Positions 33,529 through 59,869 of a stretch of DNA of 64,000 nt are shown one piece after another. The notes beneath the pieces are model-generated. The model ran no database searches and had not been told where the DNA came from. It saw only the letters and a list, made by a program, of their open reading frames with translations. The position numbers and the translations under genes were made by a program. Each line of letters opens with the position of its first letter. Position 1 is the stretch's first letter. This DNA is from Nitrosopumilus sp. (GTDB lineage Archaea; Thermoproteota; Nitrososphaeria; Nitrososphaerales; Nitrosopumilaceae): contig OZ241857.1 in assembly GCA_965203315.1 (NCBI GenBank), positions 1,760,001-1,824,000 on the forward strand, given 5' to 3'.

Positions 33529-33553
33529 TTTATAAGATACGGGGGGGGGGGGG
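33529..33553 (+). promoter_or_regulatory. TATA box followed by a G13 homopolymer
   Basis: TTTATA 33529-33534, AGATAC, G13 33541-33553, then 8 nt to the TTG start. Confidence 0.75.
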
Positions 33554-33561
33554 AGTGCTTA

Positions 33562-36500
33562 TTGCTCAAGCGTCGTTTGATCTTTCTGATAGTCTTGTTA
33601 GCAGTTGTCCCATTTTTAATAGTCTATACGCCTGATGCATATGCGACCCCGCTGTACCTACCACCACCTAGTGGTTTTCCTACTTCTCTTACTACAAGTG
33701 AAGCTCCATACATGTCAGCTCAACTAGCTAGCGACAGTGGAACAATTGGTGCTACCAGCGCCAAACGATATCAGATAGACGGTAATCAAAACGTACCGGT
33801 CAAGGCAGGCGATATCTACATACAGGGTACTACAACGATAATATCCAATCCATTCTTTGTAGGAAAGGGTTACACATGTCCTTTTAATGTATTCTCACTC
33901 CCTACTGAACGCACTTTTCATGGAGGTGGTTTTGCTTATCCGACCAATGTACAGCCGACAGGTAATGCAACCAATCCCGCATCACTGACATTTCATGGAG
34001 ACTCTACTTGTGCAAACTGGTCTCCTACACATCCAATGATAACAGACAAAGAGATGCGAATCACTCTAGACAATAAAACAGGCAGTAAAGCTTGGTATGC
34101 ATCACCTCGTCAAAACATAACCGAAGCTCAGCCAATTCCTGCATGTACTGCCGATACCATAAATATCAGTACCGGTAAACTCAAGGGCAACACAAAGATG
34201 TGTTATGGTGTATACCAGGACGATCTGATCATCGTAACCAAGAGATTCTTGGGATACTATGGATCTGCGGATACAATTACGACACCACAGAATCCGGTAG
34301 ACCTTGATTCTGATGGATATTCAATTCCTTCAGGTACACTGTCCATACCACCACCTAGTGGTTTTCCTACTTCTCTTACTACAAGTGAAGCTCCATACAT
34401 GTCAGCTCAACTAGCTAGCGACAGTGGAACAATTGGTGCTACCAGCGCCAAACGATATCAGATAGACGGTAATCAAAACGTACCGGTCAAGGCAGGCGAT
34501 ATCTACATACAGGGTACTACAACGATAATATCCAATCCATTCTTTGTAGGAAAGGGTTACACATGTCCTTTTAATGTATTCTCACTCCCTACTGAACGCA
34601 CTTTTCATGGAGGTGGTTTTGCTTATCCGACCAATGTACAGCCGACAGGTAATGCAACCAATCCCGCATCACTGACATTTCATGGAGACTCTACTTGTGC
34701 AAACTGGTCTCCTACACATCCAATGATAACAGACAAAGAGATGCGAATCACTCTAGACAATAAAACAGGCAGTAAAGCTTGGTATGCATCACCTCGTCAA
34801 AACATAACCGAAGCTCAGCCAATTCCTGCATGTACTGCCGATACCATAAATATCAGTACCGGTAAACTCAAGGGCAACACAAAGATGTGTTATGGTGTAT
34901 ACCAGGACGATCTGATCATCGTAACCAAGAGATTCTTGGGATACTATGGATCTGCGGATACAATTACGACACCACAGAATCCGGTAGACCTTGATTCTGA
35001 TGGATATTCAATTCCTTCAGGTACACTGTCCATACCACCACCTAGTGGTTTTCCTACTTCTCTTACTACAAGTGAAGCTCCATACATGTCAGCTCAACTA
35101 GCTAGCGACAGTGGAACAATTGGTGCTACCAGCGCCAAACGATATCAGATAGACGGTAATCAAAACGTACCGGTCAAGGCAGGCGATATCTACATACAGG
35201 GTACTACAACGATAATATCCAATCCATTCTTTGTAGGAAAGGGTTACACATGTCCTTTTAATGTATTCTCACTCCCTACTGAACGCACTTTTCATGGAGG
35301 TGGTTTTGCTTATCCGACCAATGTACAGCCGACAGGTAATGCAACCAATCCCGCATCACTGACATTTCATGGAGACTCTACTTGTGCAAACTGGTCTCCT
35401 ACACATCCAATGATAACAGACAAAGAGATGCGAATCACTCTAGACAATAAAACAGGCAGTAAAGCTTGGTATGCATCACCTCGTCAAAACATAACCGAAG
35501 CTCAGCCAATTCCTGCATGTACTGCCGATACCATAAATATCAGTACCGGTAAACTCAAGGGCAACACAAAGATGTGTTATGGTGTATACCAGGACGATCT
35601 GATCATCGTAACCAAGAGATTCTTGGGATACTATGGATCTGCGGATACAATTACGACACCACAGAATCCGGTAGACCTTGATTCTGATGGATATTCAATT
35701 CCTTCAGGTACACTGTCCATACCACCACCTAGTGGTTTTCCTACTTCTCTTACTACAAGTGAAGCTCCATACATGTCAGCTCAACTAGCTAGCGACAGTG
35801 GAACAATTGGTGCTACCAGCGCCAAACGATATCAGATAGACGGTAATCAAAACGTACCGGTCAAGGCAGGCGATATCTACATACAGGGTACTACAACGAT
35901 AATATCCAATCCATTCTTTGTAGGAAAGGGTTACACATGTCCTTTTAATGTATTCTCACTCCCTACTGAACGCACTTTTCATGGAGGTGGTTTTGCTTAT
36001 CCGACCAATGTACAGCCGACAGGTAATGCAACCAATCCCGCATCACTGACATTTCATGGAGACTCTACTTGTGCAAACTGGTCTCCTACACATCCAATGA
36101 TAACAGACAAAGAGATGCGAATCACTCTAGACAATAAAACAGGCAGTAAAGCTTGGTATGCATCACCTCGTCAAAACATAACCGAAGCTCAGCCAATTCC
36201 TGCATGTACTGCCGATACCATAAATATCAGTACCGGTAAACTCAAGGGCAACACAAAGATGTGTTATGGTGTATACCAGGACGATCTGATCATCGTAACC
36301 AAGAGATTCTTGGGATACTATGGATCTGCGGATACAATTACGACACCACAGAATCCGGTAGACCTTGATTCTGATGGATATTCAATTCCTTCAGGTACAC
36401 TGTCCATACCACCACCTAGTGGTTTTCCTCCTACACTTACTACAAGTGATGTTCCATACCTGACAACTAGTCTTAATATCGACACTGGAACACTTGGTAC

Positions 36501-39500
36501 AAGTGCAAAGAGATATCAGATAGATGGTACCCAACCTGGTTCACCGGTCAAGGCAGGTGATATCCATATACAAGGTACGACAACAATACTCTCAAATCCG
36601 GTACTCTTTGATCTCTCAACAACATGTGCTTTTAATATCGTATCACTTCCTGCTCTAAGTACTGCTTTTCCAACCAATGTACAACCAGCAGGTAATGCAA
36701 CCAATCCGGCATCGATTGCATTTAGTGGACAATCTTCTTGTGCAAGCTTGTCTCCTACACATCCAATGATAACAGACAAAGAGATGCGAATTACTCTGAC
36801 CAATAAAACAGGCAGTAAAGCTTGGTATGCATCACCTCGTCAAAACATAACCGAAGCTCAGCCGATCCCTGCGTGTACTGCCGATACCATAAATGTCAGT
36901 ACCGGTAAACTCAAGGGCAACACAAAGATGTGTTATGGTGTATATGACGGTGAACTGATCATCATAACCAAGAGATTCTTTGGACAATATGGATCTGCTG
37001 ACACCATTACACCACCACAGAATCCAGTTGATCTCGATTCAGACAAGCCCACATCTGCGACCCCTGTACCTACGACCCCTCCGCCCACACCCGGACAGAC
37101 CCTGACGATAACCATACCTGTACCCAATGATGGTAACATTACCAGTGCGCCCCTCAGTCTCGACCACAATACGCCCAACAAGGCACGATTCATCAATAAT
37201 GAAGTTTCACCAGGATCTGGCACTAGGTATCATGATTTAATTGATGGACAATTAGGCAACATTACGATTCATTACAACACAAATATCACTAGCCAAACGT
37301 TTACTGTACCCTCAAATCCTGTTAATTACTGTTATACTGCCCAGGCAAAGGTGGGGCAATTCACATTCTCTGTGCCAAAGATAAACTCCTATATCGTCCT
37401 AGTATACCTAGATATCTCAAAAAACACTGAACAACGCTGTAGTGATGCTCCTGACATATCATTTAACGGTAAATTAACGCTAGACAAAGAGGTCTACATA
37501 AAACTGACTGGGACAGACGGACAAAATATCTTTTATCATGTGAGCGGTACAGATACGCCAGTAGAGATACCAAAGTGTACCAGTACCAACTTTGATTCTA
37601 CAGACAATACACTAAAGGGCAATACAGAGGTATGTTACGGCAAAGACGGTGCAGATACTGTCATCGTATCCAAGATACTTGCACGCTTTGGAGCCACAAC
37701 GGAGTCTATTCCAAAGTCTAGTACACCAGATCCAAGCAGCCAAGAACTGTTGACCATACCGCCAAAGACCAACTCTACAGTTGACGGTGCAGTACAATTT
37801 AACTCGGACAAATTTAATAGCGGCAAGATATTCTATAGTGGCTCCGATATGAGATTTCTGGACAAGCCAAACCCTACAGGTGATATCTATATAGAATCAA
37901 ATACTGAAACACTCCCGAACTCTCTATTTGTGATTACTGATGATTACGCATGTGATGCAACACTTGATCCTATTAAAAGTCTCAAGAAAAAACAGGTTCC
38001 AAATTTTGCCATACCAGACAATATATCTCCTAAACAAAAGAATAAACTATTTGGATTCGGTCTAGACTTTGAAGCTCCATGTTCCACACCAAGTCCAGAA
38101 ACTCCATCTAACCAAACCATATTCACCGACAAAGAGATGCGAGTTACTCTATACGGCAAGGCAGACAAAAAGCCCTACTATTTCTCACCACGTGACGGAA
38201 TACTAGAAGCACAACCCATACCCGCATGTACCAGTGATATCATCCACACAAGCAACTATACTTTACGAGGCGACAATACCATCTGTTATGGTAAACACGG
38301 AGATGATCTAGTCATTATAACAAAACGATTGGCTGGATTTTATGGTGCGGCCAACAAAGTCACCACACCTACAAATCCGGTAAACCTCAATGCAGATCCT
38401 CCATATCCCTCTCCCAAGGTACCTCGTGAGACCGATCTTTTACGACTGTCACCTCCTGCAAACTTTCCTGCACTGAATACAGATGGCAGATCTCTGTCGG
38501 TGACATCTGATCCGACTACTGCTCCTGGCGCATACTTGGCAGGCAATGATCGTGAGCGATACACTGGTCATCAAAACACTAGAATAGGCGACATGCATAT
38601 AAAAAACGATACAAAGATACTCCCCAACGAGTTTCCAGAGACGAGTACGTGTAGAGCTCAATTCAGAACCGTCAACGTTCTGATTGCCGATGACAATTAT
38701 GGAAATCTCACTCTTAAAGTACCTGCCAATCTAGTAGCAGACTCGGGTTCGTTTGGACCAAACTTTCTTGCAAGCGATACATGTAAGATTGATCTTACCA
38801 AAAACTCTGCCAAACCTCTCCTAACAGACAAAGAGTTGTGGTTTACTCTATACAACAAGGTAAATGAACACCCATACTATTTCTCGCCTCGTGAAAACAT
38901 AACAGATGCTCAACCAATTCCTGCGTGTACAACCGAGACACTTGACAAAAGCGACAATACCCTCAAGGGTGATACTATTATGTGCTTTGCTAAACATACC
39001 AACGACAACGATATCGTCATTATAACAAAACGGCTTAGTGGATTTTATGGAGCAGCTGCTCTGATACTCGAACCTGCAACTCGTGCAACACTCAATCCAG
39101 TTACACCCAGCACACCAGTCCCACCTAGCGGCACAGTTCCAGTTACTGTACCTGTTACTGTACCTGTTACTATTGAGACAGCTTTTCCACTAGTTACTGA
39201 CCCCAAGTCTCACACACGTATGGATATACCAATAAGATCACTGGGTGCAGATGTTGGTGGTCTCTTAACTGAGAACGGCACCTTTAGACACGGATACTTG
39301 GATCTAGGTGATTCTGGCATCGAGTCGGGCTATACCGGACCCATACATGTTGGTTACGTTTACCTTCCACCAAACACAAAACTAGGTCCAAATCCGTCAT
39401 TTGCAGCTGTTGGCAAGAACACTTTTGACGCAAATCTCTTACCTACCTATATTAAACAAACCTTATTCACTGATTCCAACACGTTAGGTGTACCCGCATT

Positions 39501-40797
39501 TGGATTCTTTTACGAGCCGGGAGCCGATTATCTCGAATCTGATGACAAGGCTACAATGTTCAAACCGCACGAAACCAACTCTACTATACGTGTCGTACTG
39601 TACAACCAGACCGGCAAGGCTGGATTCTCTTACTATCCATTAGGACCAGCAAAGACGTTTACACCAGATTTCATGTCAAAATGTACTGCATCTAACTTTG
39701 ACTTTACTACTCTATTACTAAAAGGCGACACCAAAGACTGCTATTATGACAACAATCGTGACATAATCATATTTACAAAGATACTAGAGTGGTATGGTGC
39801 TGGAGATGCCCCCAGTAAATCTATGAATAAAACGACTAAATCGGATAAAAGCGATACTTTTCTGTCCCTTGCACCAACATTTGGCAGATCACAATTCACG
39901 GGTGAACAGTTGGTAACCTGTGGCTATAAAATGGACGACACTTGCCGTGATGTTACTGCATACCATGTCCGGTACGAACGAGATACAATCCAGACAAACA
40001 CAACACACACATTTGCTCTCAAGGCACATGCGCCAAATCTGTTAAACAATGTAATGCTGGCATTCAGTGTACCTACAGTTGGTGCTCCACTGAGTGCAGC
40101 AGAAGCATACATTTCCGTAAATCTTGGAATAAACTATAGCGAACCATCATACCATTACATCACAGATGTTATTATACATGACCCAAACAATATCATCGAC
40201 TATGATATACAAGGTACAACCGTATCCAAGGTATCTTGTTCTGGCGGTACACTAGAGTGTATCCAAGTAATCCTCCCAGATGTACTATTCCGTGATGTAA
40301 TGAATCACGAACCGTTTGCAATACAAGTAACAGACACGTTATCACTGAACGCAATAAACTACATGAACGAAGGCGTCTTTGTTGAAGGTACATCACTAAA
40401 CGCACCACCGACTGTACGACCAGGACTAACACTATCTGGTGACGATGGTAGACCGATAAACTTGGTACTGGTCCGTACAGACAAGGTCTCTGATCTGTGG
40501 GCTGATGCATTTGGAAACACGTGGAGTCGCAACTCGTTTGGCAACTTTGTCATTGTACAATATGCACCATACGCAGGTACCACTCCAGTGTGTACAGACA
40601 TCAATGACAGAATCTGTCCGCCATTCAAGGTCAAACTCGACTGGCACAATCAAAAGATGATAGAACTACGTGACTCGCTATACAATGCATACAAGACAGA
40701 ACCGTACGCAGAGATCGACAATATATTCACATACGAGTTTGGTGACATGGACTCTCGCACTAGAACACTGATGAATCTGGGCTGGCTGACTGAATAG
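33562..40797 (+). CDS. giant secreted/surface repeat protein (2411 aa)
   Basis: Signal peptide ending AYA; ~9 Cys-containing modules; Pro/Thr linkers; many N-x-S/T sequons; distinct C-terminal domain. Confidence 0.88.
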   Translation: MLKRRLIFLIVLLAVVPFLIVYTPDAYATPLYLPPPSGFPTSLTTSEAPYMSAQLASDSGTIGATSAKRYQIDGNQNVPVKAGDIYIQGTTTIISNPFFVGKGYTCPFNVFSLPTERTFHGGGFAYPTNVQPTGNATNPASLTFHGDSTCANWSPTHPMITDKEMRITLDNKTGSKAWYASPRQNITEAQPIPACTADTINISTGKLKGNTKMCYGVYQDDLIIVTKRFLGYYGSADTITTPQNPVDLDSDGYSIPSGTLSIPPPSGFPTSLTTSEAPYMSAQLASDSGTIGATSAKRYQIDGNQNVPVKAGDIYIQGTTTIISNPFFVGKGYTCPFNVFSLPTERTFHGGGFAYPTNVQPTGNATNPASLTFHGDSTCANWSPTHPMITDKEMRITLDNKTGSKAWYASPRQNITEAQPIPACTADTINISTGKLKGNTKMCYGVYQDDLIIVTKRFLGYYGSADTITTPQNPVDLDSDGYSIPSGTLSIPPPSGFPTSLTTSEAPYMSAQLASDSGTIGATSAKRYQIDGNQNVPVKAGDIYIQGTTTIISNPFFVGKGYTCPFNVFSLPTERTFHGGGFAYPTNVQPTGNATNPASLTFHGDSTCANWSPTHPMITDKEMRITLDNKTGSKAWYASPRQNITEAQPIPACTADTINISTGKLKGNTKMCYGVYQDDLIIVTKRFLGYYGSADTITTPQNPVDLDSDGYSIPSGTLSIPPPSGFPTSLTTSEAPYMSAQLASDSGTIGATSAKRYQIDGNQNVPVKAGDIYIQGTTTIISNPFFVGKGYTCPFNVFSLPTERTFHGGGFAYPTNVQPTGNATNPASLTFHGDSTCANWSPTHPMITDKEMRITLDNKTGSKAWYASPRQNITEAQPIPACTADTINISTGKLKGNTKMCYGVYQDDLIIVTKRFLGYYGSADTITTPQNPVDLDSDGYSIPSGTLSIPPPSGFPPTLTTSDVPYLTTSLNIDTGTLGTSAKRYQIDGTQPGSPVKAGDIHIQGTTTILSNPVLFDLSTTCAFNIVSLPALSTAFPTNVQPAGNATNPASIAFSGQSSCASLSPTHPMITDKEMRITLTNKTGSKAWYASPRQNITEAQPIPACTADTINVSTGKLKGNTKMCYGVYDGELIIITKRFFGQYGSADTITPPQNPVDLDSDKPTSATPVPTTPPPTPGQTLTITIPVPNDGNITSAPLSLDHNTPNKARFINNEVSPGSGTRYHDLIDGQLGNITIHYNTNITSQTFTVPSNPVNYCYTAQAKVGQFTFSVPKINSYIVLVYLDISKNTEQRCSDAPDISFNGKLTLDKEVYIKLTGTDGQNIFYHVSGTDTPVEIPKCTSTNFDSTDNTLKGNTEVCYGKDGADTVIVSKILARFGATTESIPKSSTPDPSSQELLTIPPKTNSTVDGAVQFNSDKFNSGKIFYSGSDMRFLDKPNPTGDIYIESNTETLPNSLFVITDDYACDATLDPIKSLKKKQVPNFAIPDNISPKQKNKLFGFGLDFEAPCSTPSPETPSNQTIFTDKEMRVTLYGKADKKPYYFSPRDGILEAQPIPACTSDIIHTSNYTLRGDNTICYGKHGDDLVIITKRLAGFYGAANKVTTPTNPVNLNADPPYPSPKVPRETDLLRLSPPANFPALNTDGRSLSVTSDPTTAPGAYLAGNDRERYTGHQNTRIGDMHIKNDTKILPNEFPETSTCRAQFRTVNVLIADDNYGNLTLKVPANLVADSGSFGPNFLASDTCKIDLTKNSAKPLLTDKELWFTLYNKVNEHPYYFSPRENITDAQPIPACTTETLDKSDNTLKGDTIMCFAKHTNDNDIVIITKRLSGFYGAAALILEPATRATLNPVTPSTPVPPSGTVPVTVPVTVPVTIETAFPLVTDPKSHTRMDIPIRSLGADVGGLLTENGTFRHGYLDLGDSGIESGYTGPIHVGYVYLPPNTKLGPNPSFAAVGKNTFDANLLPTYIKQTLFTDSNTLGVPAFGFFYEPGADYLESDDKATMFKPHETNSTIRVVLYNQTGKAGFSYYPLGPAKTFTPDFMSKCTASNFDFTTLLLKGDTKDCYYDNNRDIIIFTKILEWYGAGDAPSKSMNKTTKSDKSDTFLSLAPTFGRSQFTGEQLVTCGYKMDDTCRDVTAYHVRYERDTIQTNTTHTFALKAHAPNLLNNVMLAFSVPTVGAPLSAAEAYISVNLGINYSEPSYHYITDVIIHDPNNIIDYDIQGTTVSKVSCSGGTLECIQVILPDVLFRDVMNHEPFAIQVTDTLSLNAINYMNEGVFVEGTSLNAPPTVRPGLTLSGDDGRPINLVLVRTDKVSDLWADAFGNTWSRNSFGNFVIVQYAPYAGTTPVCTDINDRICPPFKVKLDWHNQKMIELRDSLYNAYKTEPYAEIDNIFTYEFGDMDSRTRTLMNLGWLTE
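33661..36408 (+). repeat. four apparently identical 687-bp (229-aa) tandem repeats, followed by a divergent fifth
   Basis: Units begin CCACCACCTAGTGGTTTTCCT at 33661, 34348, 35035, 35722 and 36409. Confidence 0.95.
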
Positions 40798-40803
40798 ACT
40801 AAA

Positions 40804-40980
40804 GGTTCTATTCAATTGATGGGGGTTGGCATTTTCTGCACAAAATTCTCGAAAAATTTTATAAAATATGGAAACGGCCTCATATCTGCTATCGTAAATC
40901 GCTGCTGTTTTGAGTCACACACTGTGTGTCTTTTGAGATAACGTCATCACGATCTCAACTGCCGTCAATTGAACAGAACT
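40804..40980. mobile_element. MITE family A, copy 2
   Basis: GGTTCTATTCAATTGA...GTCAATTGAACAGAACT; begins 7 nt after the giant gene's stop codon. Confidence 0.85.
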
Positions 40981-41014: not shown

Positions 41015-41272
41015 GGATCTTTTCGATTTACCTGAGACTATGTGCGTATTATTAAGAGTACCCATGCCCAATCATCAAACATGGTAACAATGAATCAATC
41101 TGTCTCTAGAAATTACACTTGTGTTTTATTGTATCTTAAAACGTGAGTATGATGTAAGAAATACGCATATGGTCTCTGGAATGAATGGTTACAAAAAAAG
41201 CACTATGCGATTACATAACAAAATTACAGAAAAACCTTGCGAAACTTGATCCCACGTAAATCGAAGAGATCC
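41015..41272. mobile_element. MITE family B, long variant (258 bp)
   Basis: TIRs GGATCTTTTCGATTTAC / GTAAATCGAAGAGATCC; the right ~100 bp match the other copies. Confidence 0.7.
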
Positions 41273-44739: not shown

Positions 44740-45200
44740 TCTATCTTGTACACACATACGATGATGATTCAAATATACACATAGAATTATCGATGTCAAC
44801 GCAAATCTGGTCTTAACTAGACAAAAATAGAAAGATCTACAAGAGGTACATAAAATTGGAAGCCCGAATTTGAGGCTAGATTGGCAGACTAGACCTAACA
44901 TATTCTTGCACGATAGATATTCTACAAATGAACAAGTTGTTCACTAGGGTTAAATACAAACTTTTGATGATAATATCAATAACATGTATAATTGTACAGG
45001 TTGTACAAGTGCTTGTAAAGTTATCCGACATGACCTTTTACAGTCTATTGGTCTACGTACCTACTTCACATCTCTTGTATCAAGTATCTTGTGAATGAGT
45101 AATATTGTATAATGCAAGAGTCGAGAATGAAGGAGTAGAGATCAGCGTATGTTGTCATTGACACTGTATGTAGATATCACTATGCATTATTATATCATAT

Positions 45201-45218
45201 AAAAAAAGAAAAAAAAAA
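45201..45218 (-). terminator. oligo(T) terminator of the S-layer gene
   Basis: T10-C-T7 on the minus strand just after the stop codon. Confidence 0.7.
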
Positions 45219-45226
45219 GGTTTGAA

Positions 45227-48200
45227 CTAGTTTACAGTTATTGTTGTTGTCTGTTGTGGAGATAGTGCAGTTGGTATAGTCAACGACTCCCATGCAAATA
45301 CGGTGATTGTGTATTCACCGGATGCAGTTGGTATCCACGACTGAGATGGACTAAACGACTGAGATGGTGTTAGTGAACCATCAATCCAAGACAGAGATAC
45401 TGTAACACCATCGCTATCTTGAATTTGTACCAAGTATGCAAATGGTTGGTCTTTGTCTTGTGTGTTTGTCAAATCTGCAGTGATCTGGACTTGTTGATCT
45501 ATTGATACCGTACTGAGTGTTGTACCTGTAGAGTCTACTATTCTCAACGACTCGATCTTTACTCGTTCTAGAGGAGGTACTATTGTTCCTATTATGGTGG
45601 TTGCAGTGATGTCTTCAGAGTCGCCTGTATTGTACGGAGCAGGTAGAGTGTTGTCGCTGTACTTTGCAGTGACTGTGTCTCCTTCTTCTGTGGATAGTTT
45701 GTGACCGCCTGATTGGACAGAGAGTCCAAAGAATACAGTACCTTCAAAGATACCACTTGCTGGTTGAGTCTCTGTTACTGTAAGGGTTATTCCACTAGGT
45801 GCACTAGAAGACCATACTTTGACCTCAAAGTTGTCTGCAGATTCTGGATTCAAGTTCATGTCGGGATCGATTACACGTAGTACGCCTGTAGCTGTAGCAG
45901 GATAACTTGCTTCTAGCCACTGAACTTCACCAATGTTCCAACGGATTAGAGCAGACTTGCGTACAGTCTCGTCGTCAGAGAACTCGAATGATACCTCGAG
46001 TCCGTCGTCGTTGTCTGTTGGTAATAGTCCATCGGTTGGTCCGTTACATCTATCACATGTACGACCTGTGACGTCTTTACCATTATAGCCTGTAGAGTTA
46101 TCATCATCTACGTCATATGAGAATCCTGTCAGTATTACTTCACCTGTAAAGATACCAGTGTTTGTACCTGTCTCTACGAGTTTGTAGTTTTTAATGTCGT
46201 CGGATCTTGTAGCAACACGTACCGGATATGGATCAGCACCAATCTCGTCTACTTGGTTTGTGTTTAGGTTGTGATCAGGAGCTGTTACAGTAATGAATAC
46301 CTTGTCGGTCCAACTGTATACGCTTTGATCTAGTTCTATTGTAGCACCAAAGTTTGATGTGAATACCGTTCTGTCGATATCTTCTGTATTATCACCTACA
46401 TAGTCTGCACCTGATGGTCCATAGTCTGTGTATTCTAGCTTGATCTCTTCGCCTCGTTCTAGTCTGTCGTTGTCTATGGCCTTGGGAACAGATATGACCA
46501 CTTGGAAGATACCTGTGCTAGGACCAGTCTCTCGTAGAGAGCCTGGTTCTGCATCGAATATACCTTCACTCAGATTCTTGGTACCTGCGTCCGAGTCCCA
46601 TTTGATCAGATCAAGTGTATATGTTTCACGTGTACCGCTGTCTAGATCAAGGTCTGGATCGATGAGTGTTACGATCATGTCCGAGCCTATAACGTATACA
46701 GACTTGTCTGTCTGTAGAGCACCGTTTCGTAGATCAAAGGTAGCAGAGTCTGTGACTGTGCGTGGGTTACCAGAAGCATCTGTTGTGTCGTTGTACTGTA
46801 CGGTGAGGATATCACCTTGTAGGATGCATGTACGGCTTGTCGTACCGTCAGATATTGTTCTACTTGGACAGTCACTACCACTTGGTCCATCTATGTAAGA
46901 TAGATCAAAGCTTACTTCAAAGACTCCAGATTCAGGAGATGTCTCTGTTAGAGCACCCAAATTCTTTGGATCACATGTACCAGTATCTCGAGCATTAGTG
47001 TACCTTAACTCTGCCAAGAGATATTCGGTATATTTTGTAGCCTTTTCAGTAGGATCTGTAGCATCAGCATGTGCCTTTTTTGCGGCATCTCGCTTTCGTT
47101 CCAACTGACTAACCTCGTCGTTTGCCTCTGATGTAGTGCCACCTGCATGACCTATTAAACACTCATCACCACTGCGAGAGACTGTTATCTTGACTGGTCC
47201 GTTTCCAGACATGCCTTCGATCTTGTCCTCGCCTGTAGGATTCAAGTTGTAGTCTGGGTCGTTTACTTGAACATAGACTTTAACTGTACCAAGTGGAAGA
47301 TTCGTTCCGGCCATGTCTAGGGCTCTTGAACCAGTTGTTGTACCCTGACCATACGGAACTGGATATACAGTTCTATCTAGCGATACAGAGCCTGTACTTG
47401 CACCAATCGATGCAGAGTCACCAGCTGTGACTATCTGACCAGATGCATCTCTAAAGTCTAGATATGTTACGCCAATATCTTTGCCGCTTGTAGGTGTGTT
47501 AGGGTTTCTCGTGTTTACTGTATCGTCGTCATTAAAGTTGCATACTTGTTTTGGTATAGAAAATGAACCTGTAAAGACTCCTGTACTGGATCCGGTCTCT
47601 TGTAGAGTGAATCCGGTTTTAGCGAGTCCGTTCTGAATGTTATTATCTAGGTCACATGCGCCAGATTTCCATCTCTCACCACCAATGGTTACTTCGAGTA
47701 GCATTCCTAGTGATTTGCCACCTGGTAGTAGAGACTTGTACTTGATACCAGCTACATTGGTTACACTCATGCCTACTTGATCTCTATCTGTGTCATTGTG
47801 GTTACTGTCCATTACTACTGTATAGGTATCAGCACGATCAGGATCTGTATTCAGATCAGAGTCCTCTAGTGTTATTACGACATTGCTGCCTACACTGTAT
47901 GTCTCTGCATTCAGAGATACCACACCACTAGAGGTTGCGATATCTTGTTGATCAGAGACCACAGCCATGTTGCCGTTCGAGTCTATGTCTGCATAGTTTA
48001 CTCGCGCGTCAGAGCCTGTAATGTCCTCAAAGGCGATGAATTTGACTTCATTGCCTGTTGGTGTGATACTATCGAATATGTATGGAGTCTTTGGGTAGTT
48101 GTTGCCTTCCATATACGAACGATCATTCACTATCATATCGAGTTGGTTTATCATGATGTACTCTAGTGTTCCTGTAAAGGTACTAGTGTTCTCACCAGTC

Positions 48201-50515
48201 TCTTCTACCTCGACTCGTATAATCTGATTTGCAACTCTCTCACTTGCTTGTGCACCATCGTCATAGAATCCATACGAGAAGAAATCTGCGACTATGGGAT
48301 ATTCTTTGCCTTCAGTGATAGTAAATGATGGTGTGGCGTGGCCATTTCCGTCTTTGATTATTATTCCCAGTGTGACTTGAGCGCTAGTACCGACCTTTGA
48401 TAGAAATTCAGAACTAGATAGTGAATATTTTAGTTCATTGTTATTTCTATCTTCGACCATAAAGCCGGTTATGTCTCTAAGGCCGGAACGAGTATCATAT
48501 GCTGAGAGTTCACTTTTGCTATTGTCTAACAGTGTTCCAAAGTAAACAACATCTCCTGTACTGTTGTGTATGTTTAGATCAACACGCATGTTGTTTGTAT
48601 CAAAGACGCCAAAGTCATAGTTGAATAGATTTCGCCCCGTAAAGTTGCCTTTATTTGAACGGTCATCGTTAATCGATCCATGTAGATCTTCTAGCGTACC
48701 TAGAGGAATAGCAATCATCCCTCCAATGAAGAAGCCAGATGCTGGTCCCGCAAGTGAAAGTGGTTCGGTATCGCGAACATCATTTGAACCATTCCATGAC
48801 AGTATGCCTCTATGACTATCATCGACTCTAAAATCTAAGTCACGTATGTATGTCCTATCATCTGGATCTATCGGATATTTCTGCCAAGAAGTACCTGGTT
48901 GTGTATATGCATATGCAGAATTGTCTTTACTGTCCATTAGTGTACGTGGGTCACCTGTCATAAATGTCGGAATTCTTGACATTGGGTCAGATACCTTTTG
49001 ATCGTCTTCTGCATCACTGTCTTTGTTTTGATCTGCATCGACTATGGTTAGGTCGATCTTTTCGCCAGAGTTCCATGTGCCGTCTGCGATATCGAGGTTT
49101 ACTGTAGCAGAGGTGAGTCGTAGGTTTACTGGCACATTATCATCACCGTATGTAATCTGTGCGTTGGTGTTTCGTGGCGCATCAGACTTTGTCATTATTG
49201 AACCACCATCATCGGCAAATTCAAAGACGCCAGTGTTTGGTCCTGTCTCTTCGAATTTGAGTGATTGTATTGTACCAGAAGTGGCAAACACATGAGTTGG
49301 TCTAGTAAATTCTACTACTGGATCATCAGTAATCTTTAGGAGACAATCATTATCACAACCTAATGCACTAGTAGTTGTTACAAATTTAGTAAACTCGTCA
49401 TCACTATATTCAACATAAATTCTAATATGCTCATCGTCTCTAGTGGTGTCATTCACCATAAAATGCATTATATCTTTAGCAGTAGGATCGATATTCAGCA
49501 CATGGTCCGTGATCGTTGGATATATGTTGGCGCCTCGTGGATAATAGTCACGATCTAGCTCAAGTGAGTGATTTGTAGATTGGTCGTATCTCACGGTTAC
49601 AGTTTGTGGATTTCCAGGCTTGTAATAGACAACTTCTACCTCATCCCCATCATCGAGATCAAGATATTTGACCATATCTTCAGATATCTTTGTATCGTTG
49701 TCATTGTCAGCTCTTGTAAGGGGCAATTCACTCAGATATCTATCCCGATAGTGAGTTTGATTATTATTAGGCGATTGCTCATTTCGAGCCCCTAACCAAA
49801 TATGATCAAATTTAGATGTAAGTTTTGATATATTTGATATCTCTTCTTAAGGTGGGAAATGACGTGTATGATGCACGGGTCTTTGATGGATACCAGCGAG
49901 AATCAGTTGATCACCAGAATATCTTTGCTAGGGACGAAGTGCACATCAACGGAATGGAAGGGTTCTGGGGCTTTACAAAATTAAACATGGTGAAGCATCG
50001 TGGGGTGAGCTCAAAGAAATTCTTACTGTATCTCAAAGAGAGGGAGTGGTGATGCAAGAACCGAGAGTGCGATCTGTTTGATTTATTGATGCAATACACG
50101 CTTAGGGGCTCGAAATGAGCAATCGCCTATTATTAATATCGCCCACAGCGCTGCCATCAGTTATATCACCATCACCGTTACCATCTTTTCCAATATCTGC
50201 AAAATAGCCATACCAAGAACCATCTCCTGCATGTTGCATTTTGAGATCTTTACCATCAACTGTGACTCTAGGCATTCCGTCACCCATATCTGTCCGTAAT
50301 GGATCACTTACAATAACCTCCACATACTGGATACCGCCAAAGGTATTGTCGAATCTAGATCCGTATCCGTTTGGATCAGCAGCTGAGACGTATAGGTTTG
50401 GTGTCGACTGGGCATATACTGGCTCCATGCTGGGTATAGCAAAGGTCAGTCCGCCTGCGACCATTATCATCATTAGTATTAAACTAGTTGTTTTTCGTCC
50501 TATTTCGTTATTCAT
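45227..50515 (-). pseudogene. S-layer protein (SlaA-like) interrupted by an IS1595-derived element; 1640 aa if the element is excised
   Basis: N-terminus MNNEIGRKTTSLILMMIMVAGGLTFAIP; repeated ETGxxTGxF Ig-like motifs; C-terminus QPFAYLVQIQD...PTALSP; the two pieces join in frame on removing 49770-50127 plus one TSD. Confidence 0.88.
49770..50127 (+). mobile_element. 358-bp non-autonomous IS1595-family derivative
   Basis: 26-bp perfect TIR GGCGATTGCTCATTTCGAGCCCCTAA; 8-bp TSD TATTATTA (49762-49769, 50128-50135); internal transposase remnant VDHQNIFARDEVHINGMEGFW...YLKEREW (49825-50052). Confidence 0.93.
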
Positions 50516-50528
50516 GTTATTAATTTAT

Positions 50529-50549
50529 CCCCCCCCCGTGCCATATAAA
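50529..50549 (-). promoter_or_regulatory. TATA box followed by a G9 homopolymer (S-layer promoter)
   Basis: Minus strand reads TTTATA-TGGCAC-G9-ATAAATTAATAAC-ATG. Confidence 0.75.
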
Positions 50550-50592
50550 GACTATGAACAATTCGTTCACTGACGTTTACGTGAGAATTATT

Positions 50593-50769
50593 GGCTCTGT
50601 TCAGTTTACGTGAGTTGAGATCGTGATGAGGTTATCTCAAAGAACGTACAATATGAGACTCAAAACAGTAGCAATTTACGATAGACGGTACAAACCCGTT
50701 TCCATATTTTGCAAAATTTTTCGAGAATTTTGTGCAGAGAATGCCAACTCCCGTCAATTGAACAGAACA
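50593..50769. mobile_element. MITE family A, copy 3 (inverted) with TSD
   Basis: GGCTCTGTTCAGTTTACG...CGTCAATTGAACAGAACA; GAATTATT at 50585-50592 and 50770-50777. Confidence 0.88.
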
Positions 50770-55821: not shown

Positions 55822-56774
55822 TTAGTATTTGGGCTCAAACAATCTATTTCTGTTATAGTCAACAACACACATCTCAAACAATAATCTATACTTATCTTCA
55901 TGGTATTGATGTTTTAGATCGTTCATACATCCAACAAGTTCTTTATTCCTGTATAACACATTATCAAAGTAGAGTCTACTAGGCAACATGTTTATTTTTT
56001 GCTTATTACATCGTTGACAGACTAGTACGCAATTGTATGGCACCGTAGAAAATATATAATTATAAGGTATTACATGATCGACAAACGGCTTGGAAAATTT
56101 TTCTAAACAATAGAAACATTTAGAGTCTTGCGCTTTTTTAAATCGTACTTGTATATCCTTCTTCAACATTTTTGGTGGACTAGTTAGAGTATTAACTTTG
56201 GTTGCAATTTGTGGAGTCAGCTTATTTAGTCTTTCTAAATACGTAGCAATTTTATTATTTAAGCCTTGCTTTAACATAGTTTTGTACTTGTGTAAAAAAT
56301 TGATAAACGATTCATCAAAATATATTGTATTTGAATTATGTTTTTGAAAGAGATTGATCATATCTGTTTTTATATGAAACAACACTTCAGGTTTTATACT
56401 TTTTGTTATTACCTCTTTTCTGAAATCTTGCATATGATCTTCTGCAAGTTCTTGTATGGTTGGGGGTTTTTATGAAGATTATGATACATGTGGATAATCT
56501 TTACAATTCTAGCATCGTGTGGATCTTGGGCTTGTTTTAAATGAAATCCATATTCCATATCCCAATAGAATTTTGCAAATCTAACTGCAATAAAATTTAG
56601 ATCAACATAGAGATTACCATTATTTTGTTCAAGCCATCTTTGACCTACCAAATATTTTTTATCAACAAGATCTCCAATATCTAACAGTGATCTTAAAAAT
56701 ACTGGTTTGTAGGTACTAGCCATGTATCCTTTATCGAACATTTGATCAAACATTGCAAGATAGTTGACTGTCAT
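55822..56774 (-). pseudogene. HNH endonuclease gene split by a 1-nt frameshift at ~56465
   Basis: N-part STYKPVFLRSLLD...FAKFYW; C-part CFYC...VDHVIP...NCVLVCQRCNKQK; AT-rich island. Confidence 0.75.
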
Positions 56775-57007
56775 ATCAAAAGTTGATTCTTCGATATAAA
56801 TATAACTTGCTAAGAGTCTTTCCAAAAAAGATCTTTTAATACAACATTTTGATTGTGTAATGTTTAGTAGTTTTTTATTTGAAAATAACACATGATGAGT
56901 GAGACTGTTTGTTTGAGGTTGACTTGTCAAACATTGCATATGCTGATCAATTTACATATCACAAGATCTTAGCAATCAATATAAGACAAATATAACATAC
57001 ATTGTAT

Positions 57008-59752: not shown

Positions 59753-59869
59753 GGATCTCTTCGATTTATGTGAGATGATATTTCACAAGGCTTTTTTCCA
59801 ATCTTCGGTTAGAGAATCTTGTAGTGCTTCCGTCATAACCATTCTACCTCACGCAAACCGAAGAGATCC
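59753..59869. mobile_element. MITE family B, copy 4 (117 bp)
   Basis: GGATCTCTTCGATTTATGTGAG...CTCACGCAAACCGAAGAGATCC. Confidence 0.85.

Follow-up and report, generated by a model that had tools for sequence, protein, structure and literature searches.

An IS1595-type insertion in one of twelve slaA loci of a Nitrosopumilus genome, amid a putative system of invertible S-layer gene cassettes

The surface-layer (S-layer) gene slaA in a 64,000-nucleotide stretch of a Nitrosopumilus sp. genome (contig OZ241857.1, positions 1,760,001 to 1,824,000; hereafter the window) is cut in two by a 358-bp element of the IS1595 type. The question raised by this locus is whether the gene, referred to here as copy W, has been lost or can be turned on again; a preliminary description of the window had proposed, among other possibilities, an on/off switch based on excision. 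Our analysis favours a different answer, with a probability of roughly 0.68: the element is likely a one-way knockout of a copy with a fixed promoter, and the eight intact slaA copies of the genome are likely switched by inversion of whole genes. Coordinates without a contig prefix are positions in the window; C1, C4 and C5 are contigs of the window's own 2.47-Mb genome.

The element (49770..50127, plus strand) is a non-autonomous miniature inverted-repeat transposable element (MITE), with an internal deletion of ~550 bp relative to its 907-bp partner. Both ends carry a perfect terminal inverted repeat (TIR) of exactly 26 bp (left, 49770..49795, plus strand; right, 50102..50127, minus strand) and are flanked on each side by TATTATTA, the two copies of the 8-bp target-site duplication (TSD) lying at 49762..49769 and 50128..50135. 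Inverted repeats of 14 nt, counted at 0–10 per shuffled window, were set aside as too loose a control for the 26-bp TIR. W, which is encoded on the minus strand, is interrupted at codon 130. Its 5′ part (codons 1–129; 50128..50515) reads into the TIR to give a 137-aa truncated product, the RRLLISSP-stop tail of which is coded by the right TIR; RLLISSP-stop is encoded whichever end of the element is read into. The 3′ part (45227..49769) has no internal stop and is a homologue of the Nitrosopumilus maritimus S-layer protein (1068 bits against PDB 8c8k_A, in three stretches). Inside the element, a C-terminal remnant of the transposase (49825..50052, plus strand) keeps the EGFW motif, carries a premature TGA, and is devoid of the zinc finger as well as of the first and second acidic motif; it scores 27.5 bits on Pfam DDE_Tnp_IS1595 (cut-off 27) and 33.3 bits on NF033547, under the cut-off of 75. 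The promoter of W (50516..50569, minus strand) consists of a palindrome (50555–50569), a TATA-like box (50542–50549) and a tract of nine G (50529–50537), and a T-rich, terminator-like tract (45199..45224, minus strand) lies 3′ of the stop codon. Excising the element together with one TSD in silico yields one continuous frame of 1640 aa that starts at 50515, ends at 45227 and has one stop. In all these respects (the insertion with its TIRs and TSD, the frame including the junction peptide, the transposase remnant, the stop-bearing tail in either orientation, and the undamaged promoter and terminator) our recomputation agrees with the preliminary description. A frame regained in this way is expected of any insertion and does not point to a switch. 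As the insertion fell into a TAT repeat, removing the element plus 8, 5 or 2 bp preserves the frame of W, and removing the element alone, or with 7 bp, destroys it.

Sequencing contigs show the insertion to be real. Four of the 15 listed runs (X1, X3, X4 and X5, from 3 studies) were examined, all as Logan contigs, and a junction was counted as bridged where a contig had at least 31 letters on both of its sides. The insertion is present in the contigs of all four. In X5, one 1010-bp contig (49116–50125) bridges the left junction between slaA and the element; in X1, X3 and X4, only 21–28 letters of the TIR are covered by the slaA contigs, which is under the bridging rule. In X1, possibly the sample of origin, the depths of both junction contigs (219.7 and 218.3, vs 222.2 and 215.1) are those of a single-copy locus, and X3 and X4, which come from two further studies, carry the left junction. 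It is extremely unlikely that the insertion is an assembly artefact. Such a reading could point to the repeat-rich genome, where an slaA start is the branching point of C1 and C5, and to an exchange of flanks between W and another copy, d (see below), that could itself be a misjoin; it has to contend with the bridging contig in X5, the junction contigs in the other three runs and the perfect TSD. The 'very recent' loss in the preliminary description fares less well, given that the insertion occurs in runs of three studies, and what remains in its favour is that the element is 100% identical to another copy in the genome. The 3′ part of W cannot date the loss, because it is shared with the intact copy d (100% identity over codons 368–957).

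Elsewhere in the genome the element has company. Near-identical sisters occur at C1:503053 (100%) and C1:1251392 (99.7%), together with two older copies that are 84–87% identical. A search for full-length IS1595 elements with the same 26-bp TIR, advised in the preliminary description, returned four intact 907-bp elements plus one interrupted; the 280-aa transposase of these partners scores 148.2 bits on NF033547 (cut-off 75). The element thus has the attributes of a MITE, i.e., no functional transposase, three copies at 99.7–100% identity, and four intact partners with the same ends. Given its internal identity of 85–87% to the four partners, it appears to derive from a sister lineage of theirs. 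Among ten elements, the TSD is exact over 8 bp in one and over 7 bp in five, and is not exact in four; the targets have an AT content of 65–90% at all 8 of 8 sites. The target in W is among the top 0.1% of the gene by AT (the most AT-rich class of 12-mers), and that in a second broken copy, j, is in the top 2.6%. The identical MITE at C1:503053 disrupts another open reading frame (ORF), to which it adds the same RLLISSP tail. The IS1595 family is characterized by TIRs of ~25 bp and TSDs of 7–8 bp in AT-rich targets, and the elements of this genome conform. The likeness to the family (PF12762, NF033547) extends to a ~900-bp partner with a single DDE transposase and N-terminal zinc-finger motifs, to 26-bp TIRs with 7–8-bp TSDs in AT-rich targets, and to a short deletion derivative with the same ends; the window element shows nothing unusual. 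The interrupted 907-bp copy, at C1:226602-227692, is split in its transposase by a 184-bp insert. The window also holds short MITE-like repeats (50590–50768, 40804–40979, 41035–41175 and 59753–59869), from families that have dozens of copies each genome-wide.

Could a partner transposase nevertheless remove the MITE precisely and so toggle W between the truncated product and the 1640-aa S-layer protein? IS492, IS256 and IS1301 are known cases of phase variation through precise excision, and they resemble W in that an insertion sequence (IS) sits inside a surface-structure gene which its precise loss would restore; they differ in that here no empty allele is seen and the target gene is redundant. 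Speaking for such a switch are the frame regained upon removal of the element and one TSD, the intact promoter and terminator, and the four intact transposases with identical TIRs. To these may be added the X4 contigs over 49055–50389, where the left junction has a depth of 204.9 and the right one 11.4, a ~18-fold imbalance that also weighs against a plain, fixed knockout. In the same sense, X5 has a depth of 1250 over 49116–50125 (the variable region of W plus the element) vs 204–218 on the flanks, a ~six-fold excess; none of the 15 listed runs holds RNA data for the locus; and low-rate excision may still be compatible with the contigs, which drop rare variants. The evidence on the other side is broader. 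An empty-site joint, which would skip 366 bp, was not among the four joints listed in any of the four runs, with the proviso that Logan contigs lose rare variants, and both X1 junctions are at single-copy depth. Cut-and-paste excision by DDE transposases usually leaves a footprint, and the frame is lost if nothing but the element is taken out. At C1:503053, the identical copy disrupts another ORF in the same way. Moreover, IS events are typically of low frequency and one-way, according to the portions of PMC11868660 available to us, and our search of the open-access literature gave, in the excerpts returned, only single mentions of IS1595 together with precise excision and phase variation. Nor is W the gene that sets the surface phenotype, in view of eight intact paralogues, three of them facing a promoter. 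We therefore regard the excision switch put forward in the preliminary description as very improbable. The insertion, taken by itself, is a routine IS knockout of a redundant paralogue.

That redundancy is extensive. A tblastn search gave 12 distinct slaA loci in the genome, one of them on two contigs. Eight hold intact ORFs (a, b, c, d, e, f, h and i; 1591–1675 aa) and four are broken (W, j, k and g); because of these numbers, the cell is independent of gene W. A silenced paralogue, one of the readings in the preliminary description, is accordingly what W has become, and a second intact slaA, for which it advised a search, exists eight times over; a loss of the main envelope protein, another of its readings, is contradicted by three intact copies that face a promoter. 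An N-terminal query has 14 matches in this genome, as compared to 0–6 in 149 of 150 genomes of the genus and 11 in the remaining one. The copies are 96% identical over codons 1–50 and 94–100% after codon 1120, and codons ~100–650 are hypervariable, with identity alternating between 17–46% and 60–72%; the nearest paralogue changes along the gene, i.e., the copies are mosaic. Copy a is 42% identical to the slaA of a single-locus relative. The proteins are acidic (D+E 15–16%) and carry 7–12 sequons. Two of the broken copies deserve a description: k (C4:207-6716) is interrupted by an IS66-like element that holds a 535-aa ORF, and g (C1:738658-743100) is without a normal start, contains a run of 12 G where the signal peptide is encoded and ends in a foreign C-terminus.

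The N. maritimus S-layer protein NmSLP (Nmar_1547, PDB 8C8K) belongs to the same family, as the above score and the shared acidic composition indicate. As far as the sections of PMC11153153 at hand describe it, most glycans of NmSLP are in the outermost N-terminal domains, and N. maritimus has a second SLP gene, 91% identical and less expressed. By analogy with the NmSLP domains, the variable zone would be the exposed part of the coat. The present genome differs in having 12 loci rather than two, hypervariable codons ~100–650 and cassette sites, and in lacking slaA at the ancestral position.

What we call cassettes are defined by their sites. All eight intact copies start at a 23-bp palindromic site located between the TATA box and the ATG. 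It reads TTGAT-N6-ATCAATAACATG, the right arm containing the ATG, and seven of the copies have an inverted twin ~250–400 bp after the stop codon. The pattern has 18 matches in the genome vs 0 for the reversed control; across 150 relatives it has 17, spread over 15 genomes with one or two each, which is about the control rate. A promoter, made up of a palindrome and a TATA-like box, is present on one outer flank of a cassette only. By its homology to the promoter in front of slaA in single-locus relatives, the flank element appears to be an slaA promoter. Copies e, h and i face it; a, b, c, d and f face away. The 6-bp spacers of the two sites agree within a, b, c, f and i.

In the window, the tail of W leads into such a cassette end. 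A conserved non-coding tail common to the cassette copies (44987..45198) lies between the terminator and a downstream site, S2 (44964..44986, plus strand; TTGAT, spacer GATAAT, ATCAATAACATG), which is followed by an ancestral-type slaA promoter (44929..44957, plus strand; palindrome 44929–44943, TATA-like box 44950–44957) that faces the gene tail. The inverted site and second promoter at 44929–44986, which the preliminary description did not mention, thus tie the W locus to the genome-wide cassette system. The spacer of S2 agrees with that of the site in front of d (C1:1845277). The same design was sought in relatives from slaA starts on 21 stretches in nine genomes (three starts on short G120 contigs lay outside this comparison), where the best inverted downstream copy had 8–12 mismatches in 25. 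Several promoter-bearing slaA genes, again without an inverted downstream leader copy, occur in G162 (C1:878378, 906859, 914286 and 920329); G157 (C1:1205693 and 1479809), G145 (C1:1014924 and 1035953) and G120 likewise have more than one. Decayed right ends of IS1595 elements lie beside promoterless sites at C1:792660-792770, C5:17780-17870 and C5:55488-55506. Those at b and f5 score above shuffled sequences, and that at h, a near-exact 19-nt TIR end, does not. IS insertion may have created promoterless cassette ends; as a general explanation of cassette ends it was set aside, such remnants being clear at 2 of 9 promoterless and 1 of 8 promoter flanks and marginal or absent at the rest. An slaA-type promoter with a degenerate site also precedes a 371-aa gene at C5:289124, which is not an S-layer gene and presumably encodes a radical-SAM-like protein.

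Do the cassettes flip? The genes that flank them are adjacent to each other in relatives (5/5 for h, 5/5 for i, 3/5 for c), which identifies the cassettes as insertions. Another observation concerns a pair of flanks that share the spacer TGGAAT. The promoter flank of e and a promoterless flank on C5 are neighbours in 5/5 relatives, and in the assembly both join an slaA start, one ON (with promoter) and the other OFF (promoterless), on different contigs. Because both join an slaA start, a single orientation of a single cassette cannot yield the two junctions. C1 and C5 share 17,756 bp and diverge inside this very site. From this layout, inversion of the cassettes as whole genes seems probable. 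S2 was discarded as a reporter of orientation in k=31 contigs, as it and the site of d have 35 nt in common; for other loci, contig-end signatures of orientation were defined by simulation.

W and j stand apart from the cassettes. Neither has a recombination-type site at its start, and both have, between TATA box and ATG, a poly-G tract (G9 in W, G11 in j), a fixed promoter type common to these two only. The breaks in the two genes fall within the same five codons (129–133) and are due to different IS1595 elements. The fixed copies are thus IS-broken in 2 of 2 cases and the cassette copies in 0 of 8 (p=0.022, post hoc); counting the IS66-broken k as a cassette gives 1 of 9 (p=0.055, also post hoc). 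The position of the two insertions can be explained by the AT-rich target bias. Targeting to one and the same site was rejected, as the elements and the target sequences differ, and so was poly-G as a W-specific switch, as G/C runs of at least 9 number 38 genome-wide, many of them behind TATA-like boxes. Of these runs, which are 9–17 nt long, the window has those at 33541–33553 and 50529–50537, one being in the promoter of a 2411-aa repeat protein (33562–40797).

W is also entangled with d. The block at 47279..49044 (minus strand; codons 368–957) is 100% identical to d, from which W has 21 differing positions after nt 1105, and it is the likely region of an exchange of 3′ halves. In 5/5 relatives the gene flanking S2 is followed by the upstream flank of d, which we take to be grpE-dnaK, and in 3/5 relatives those upstream of W are next to the gene that lies downstream of d; W and d, 40 kb apart, are each joined to the other's ancestral flank. 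These crossed flanks lead to the conclusion that W and d swapped 3′ halves within the identical block. The swap is either a real inversion or a misjoin, and in both cases the gene that holds the element is one with a fixed promoter.

Which enzyme could invert the cassettes? Neither a serine resolvase nor an XerA above the cut-off was found in the genome, which disposes of both as candidates. Pfam integrase matches number only two, both keeping R-K-H-R-H-Y. One of them, a 542-aa tyrosine recombinase at C1:1467141, has the invariant residues R265, K311, H393, R396, H419 and Y425 and a suggestive location. In 4/5 relatives, slaA follows the homologue of C1:1464250-1465560; this genome has no slaA there. 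Instead, 1.5 kb past C1:1465560, an slaA-type promoter and a degenerate site like that of cassette c lie 40 nt before the recombinase, so that promoter, degenerate site and enzyme (C1:1467043-1468769) occupy the ancestral slaA position. A reciprocal partner of this degenerate site was not found at up to 3 mismatches. Both G142 and G146 have a convergent slaA pair whose promoterless member is adjoined, in divergent orientation, by a recombinase of the same family; this recombinase carries, reversed, a copy of the slaA leader of its own species (0/300 shuffles); overall, such a copy beats all 300 shuffles in 4 of 10 integrases, from two lineages. An att-like palindrome shared upstream of the family was looked for, and its pattern was present at only 3 of 28 integrase loci. 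Judged by eye, the family member in G073 adjoins an apparent tRNA gene. With position and promoter as its links to the cassettes, the C1:1467141 enzyme is a candidate invertase, at about even odds. As a separate observation, the window encodes, at 55822–56939, an HNH endonuclease ORF (Pfam HNH over cut-off) that overlaps an upstream 176-aa ORF on the minus strand, and the two are possibly one split gene.

A number of observations weigh against cassette inversion and the candidate enzyme. Four of the matches in relatives are plain slaA leaders within one mismatch of the site, which makes the palindrome alone weak evidence. For e, for h and for the form of f on C5, the spacers disagree. The two TGGAAT junctions could stem from flank shuffling or from a repeat assembly error; indeed, the ancestral arrangement, seen in 4/5 relatives, pairs the promoter flank of b with the promoterless flank of f, which means that flanks have also been shuffled between loci (for the promoter flank of f, an ancestral partner was not found). 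As for the enzyme, the genome has a second intact recombinase (C1:412064-413701). The family is present in 43 of 150 relatives and is thus mobile, and slaA lies within 1.5 kb at only 1 of its 25 best loci. The slaA-leader copy is absent from 6 of the 10 integrases tested, the three positives from other genomes form one clade, and a quick, unfinished tree does not group the enzyme with the other positive lineage.

Two further explanations draw on the same facts. The slaA family might be static and decaying neutrally. Duplication and IS activity would then have spread the cassettes, whose orientations would be fixed relics; the ON/OFF mixtures would reflect homologous recombination or misjoins; and W and j would have been lost only as redundant copies that happen to be AT-rich at that point. 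The target bias accounts for the insertion site under this explanation, k and g are broken too, spacers are mismatched and flanks shuffled, decayed IS1595 ends above shuffles lie beside promoterless b and f5, and other Nitrosopumilus-like genomes have several slaA genes and no inverted downstream leader copy. We consider it unlikely all the same: 17 different sites have been conserved, with spacers particular to each locus, the ATG-containing arm is retained in non-coding DNA downstream of seven genes, five promoterless copies remain intact, and the spacers agree in b and f though their flanks are not ancestral pairs. Still less likely is that W and j are poly-G master loci, i.e., blocked expression sites from which gene conversion of the 5′ region would remove the element so that a new variant is expressed constitutively. 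The near-identical first 50 codons flanking a hypervariable zone and the mosaic genes would suit such conversion, as would the rarity of the W-specific right junction relative to the left in X4, the ~six-fold depth over 49116–50125 in X5, and the two contigs of G146 that have the same promoter flank and different slaA genes. Yet the assembly shows neither locus intact, three of the cassette copies are oriented towards an ancestral-type promoter of their own, and the W junctions are at single-copy depth in X1. We thus return to a one-way knockout of W beside eight copies likely switched by inversion.

Seen against known switches, the surrounding system would be a variant of S-layer and inverton systems already described. 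At the Campylobacter fetus sap locus, silent S-layer paralogues are placed behind a promoter by DNA inversion, and silent paralogues together with putative inversion to a promoter are what the cassettes have in common with it and with slpA/slpB of Lactobacillus acidophilus. In the latter, inversion places a silent S-layer paralogue behind the promoter, as stated in the available parts of PMC3666127, and one promoter serves one locus, whereas the cassettes are dispersed and have their own promoters and short palindromic sites. A layout of the slpA/slpB type is not what the genome presents, each cassette comprising a single gene and a promoter of its own; W and d do converge, over 40 kb, but the start of W is without a site. 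Pairs of convergent slaA genes whose 5′ coding starts are shared do occur in G142 (C1:570334-603120), G146 (C2:31460-48893) and G002 (C1:1049866-1062499), and a second contig of G146 (C1) has the same promoter flank with a different slaA. These pairs look nearer to the Lactobacillus layout than the cassettes do and are possible slpA/slpB-like switches. Mpi of Bacteroides fragilis is a serine recombinase that acts in trans and runs multi-locus invertons. With Mpi and with FimB-type tyrosine invertases, as far as the material available on them goes, the putative system shares dispersed invertible surface units, a candidate master enzyme and locus-specific site cores. It differs from the Mpi system in that a whole 5-kb gene would flip and the promoter stay, in its archaeal host, and in that no serine recombinase was found. 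Archaeal chromosomal invertons are described as only minimally investigated, with 12 putative ones from 42 datasets, in the accessible text of a preprint (PMC10028968), and PMC9881135, in the sections available, leaves archaea out by design. A search of the open-access literature brought up no description of archaeal S-layer genes that invert, subscription journals and the supplementary inverton list of PMC10028968 apart.

Taken together, the MITE would very probably have been moved by a 907-bp partner acting in trans, with the most AT-rich 12-mer of W as its target, and the resulting knockout is, with nearly the same confidence, not reversed at a useful rate. W would now be mainly a sequence donor for mosaic variants. 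Cassettes with palindromic sites would probably flip whole slaA genes on and off, with the tyrosine recombinase at C1:1467141 having an even chance of being the inverting enzyme. Selection might, rather tentatively, have favoured the loss of copies that cannot flip, a constantly made subunit being one that would cancel coat variation; neutral loss of W and j under redundancy is as likely. The fullest version, in which at least seven dispersed invertible cassettes have their flip site within the slaA leader, a domesticated mobile-element recombinase sits on an slaA promoter at the ancestral position, both unswitched copies were silenced by IS1595, and G142 and G146 recruited the same recombinase family independently, is possible, though the odds are somewhat against it. 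The candidate recombinase and the defined sites make inversion testable on a plasmid. If true, a multi-locus S-layer switch would amount to bacterial-style antigenic or phase variation of a whole archaeal cell coat and, the variable part being the N-terminal half, would bear on virus escape and host recognition.

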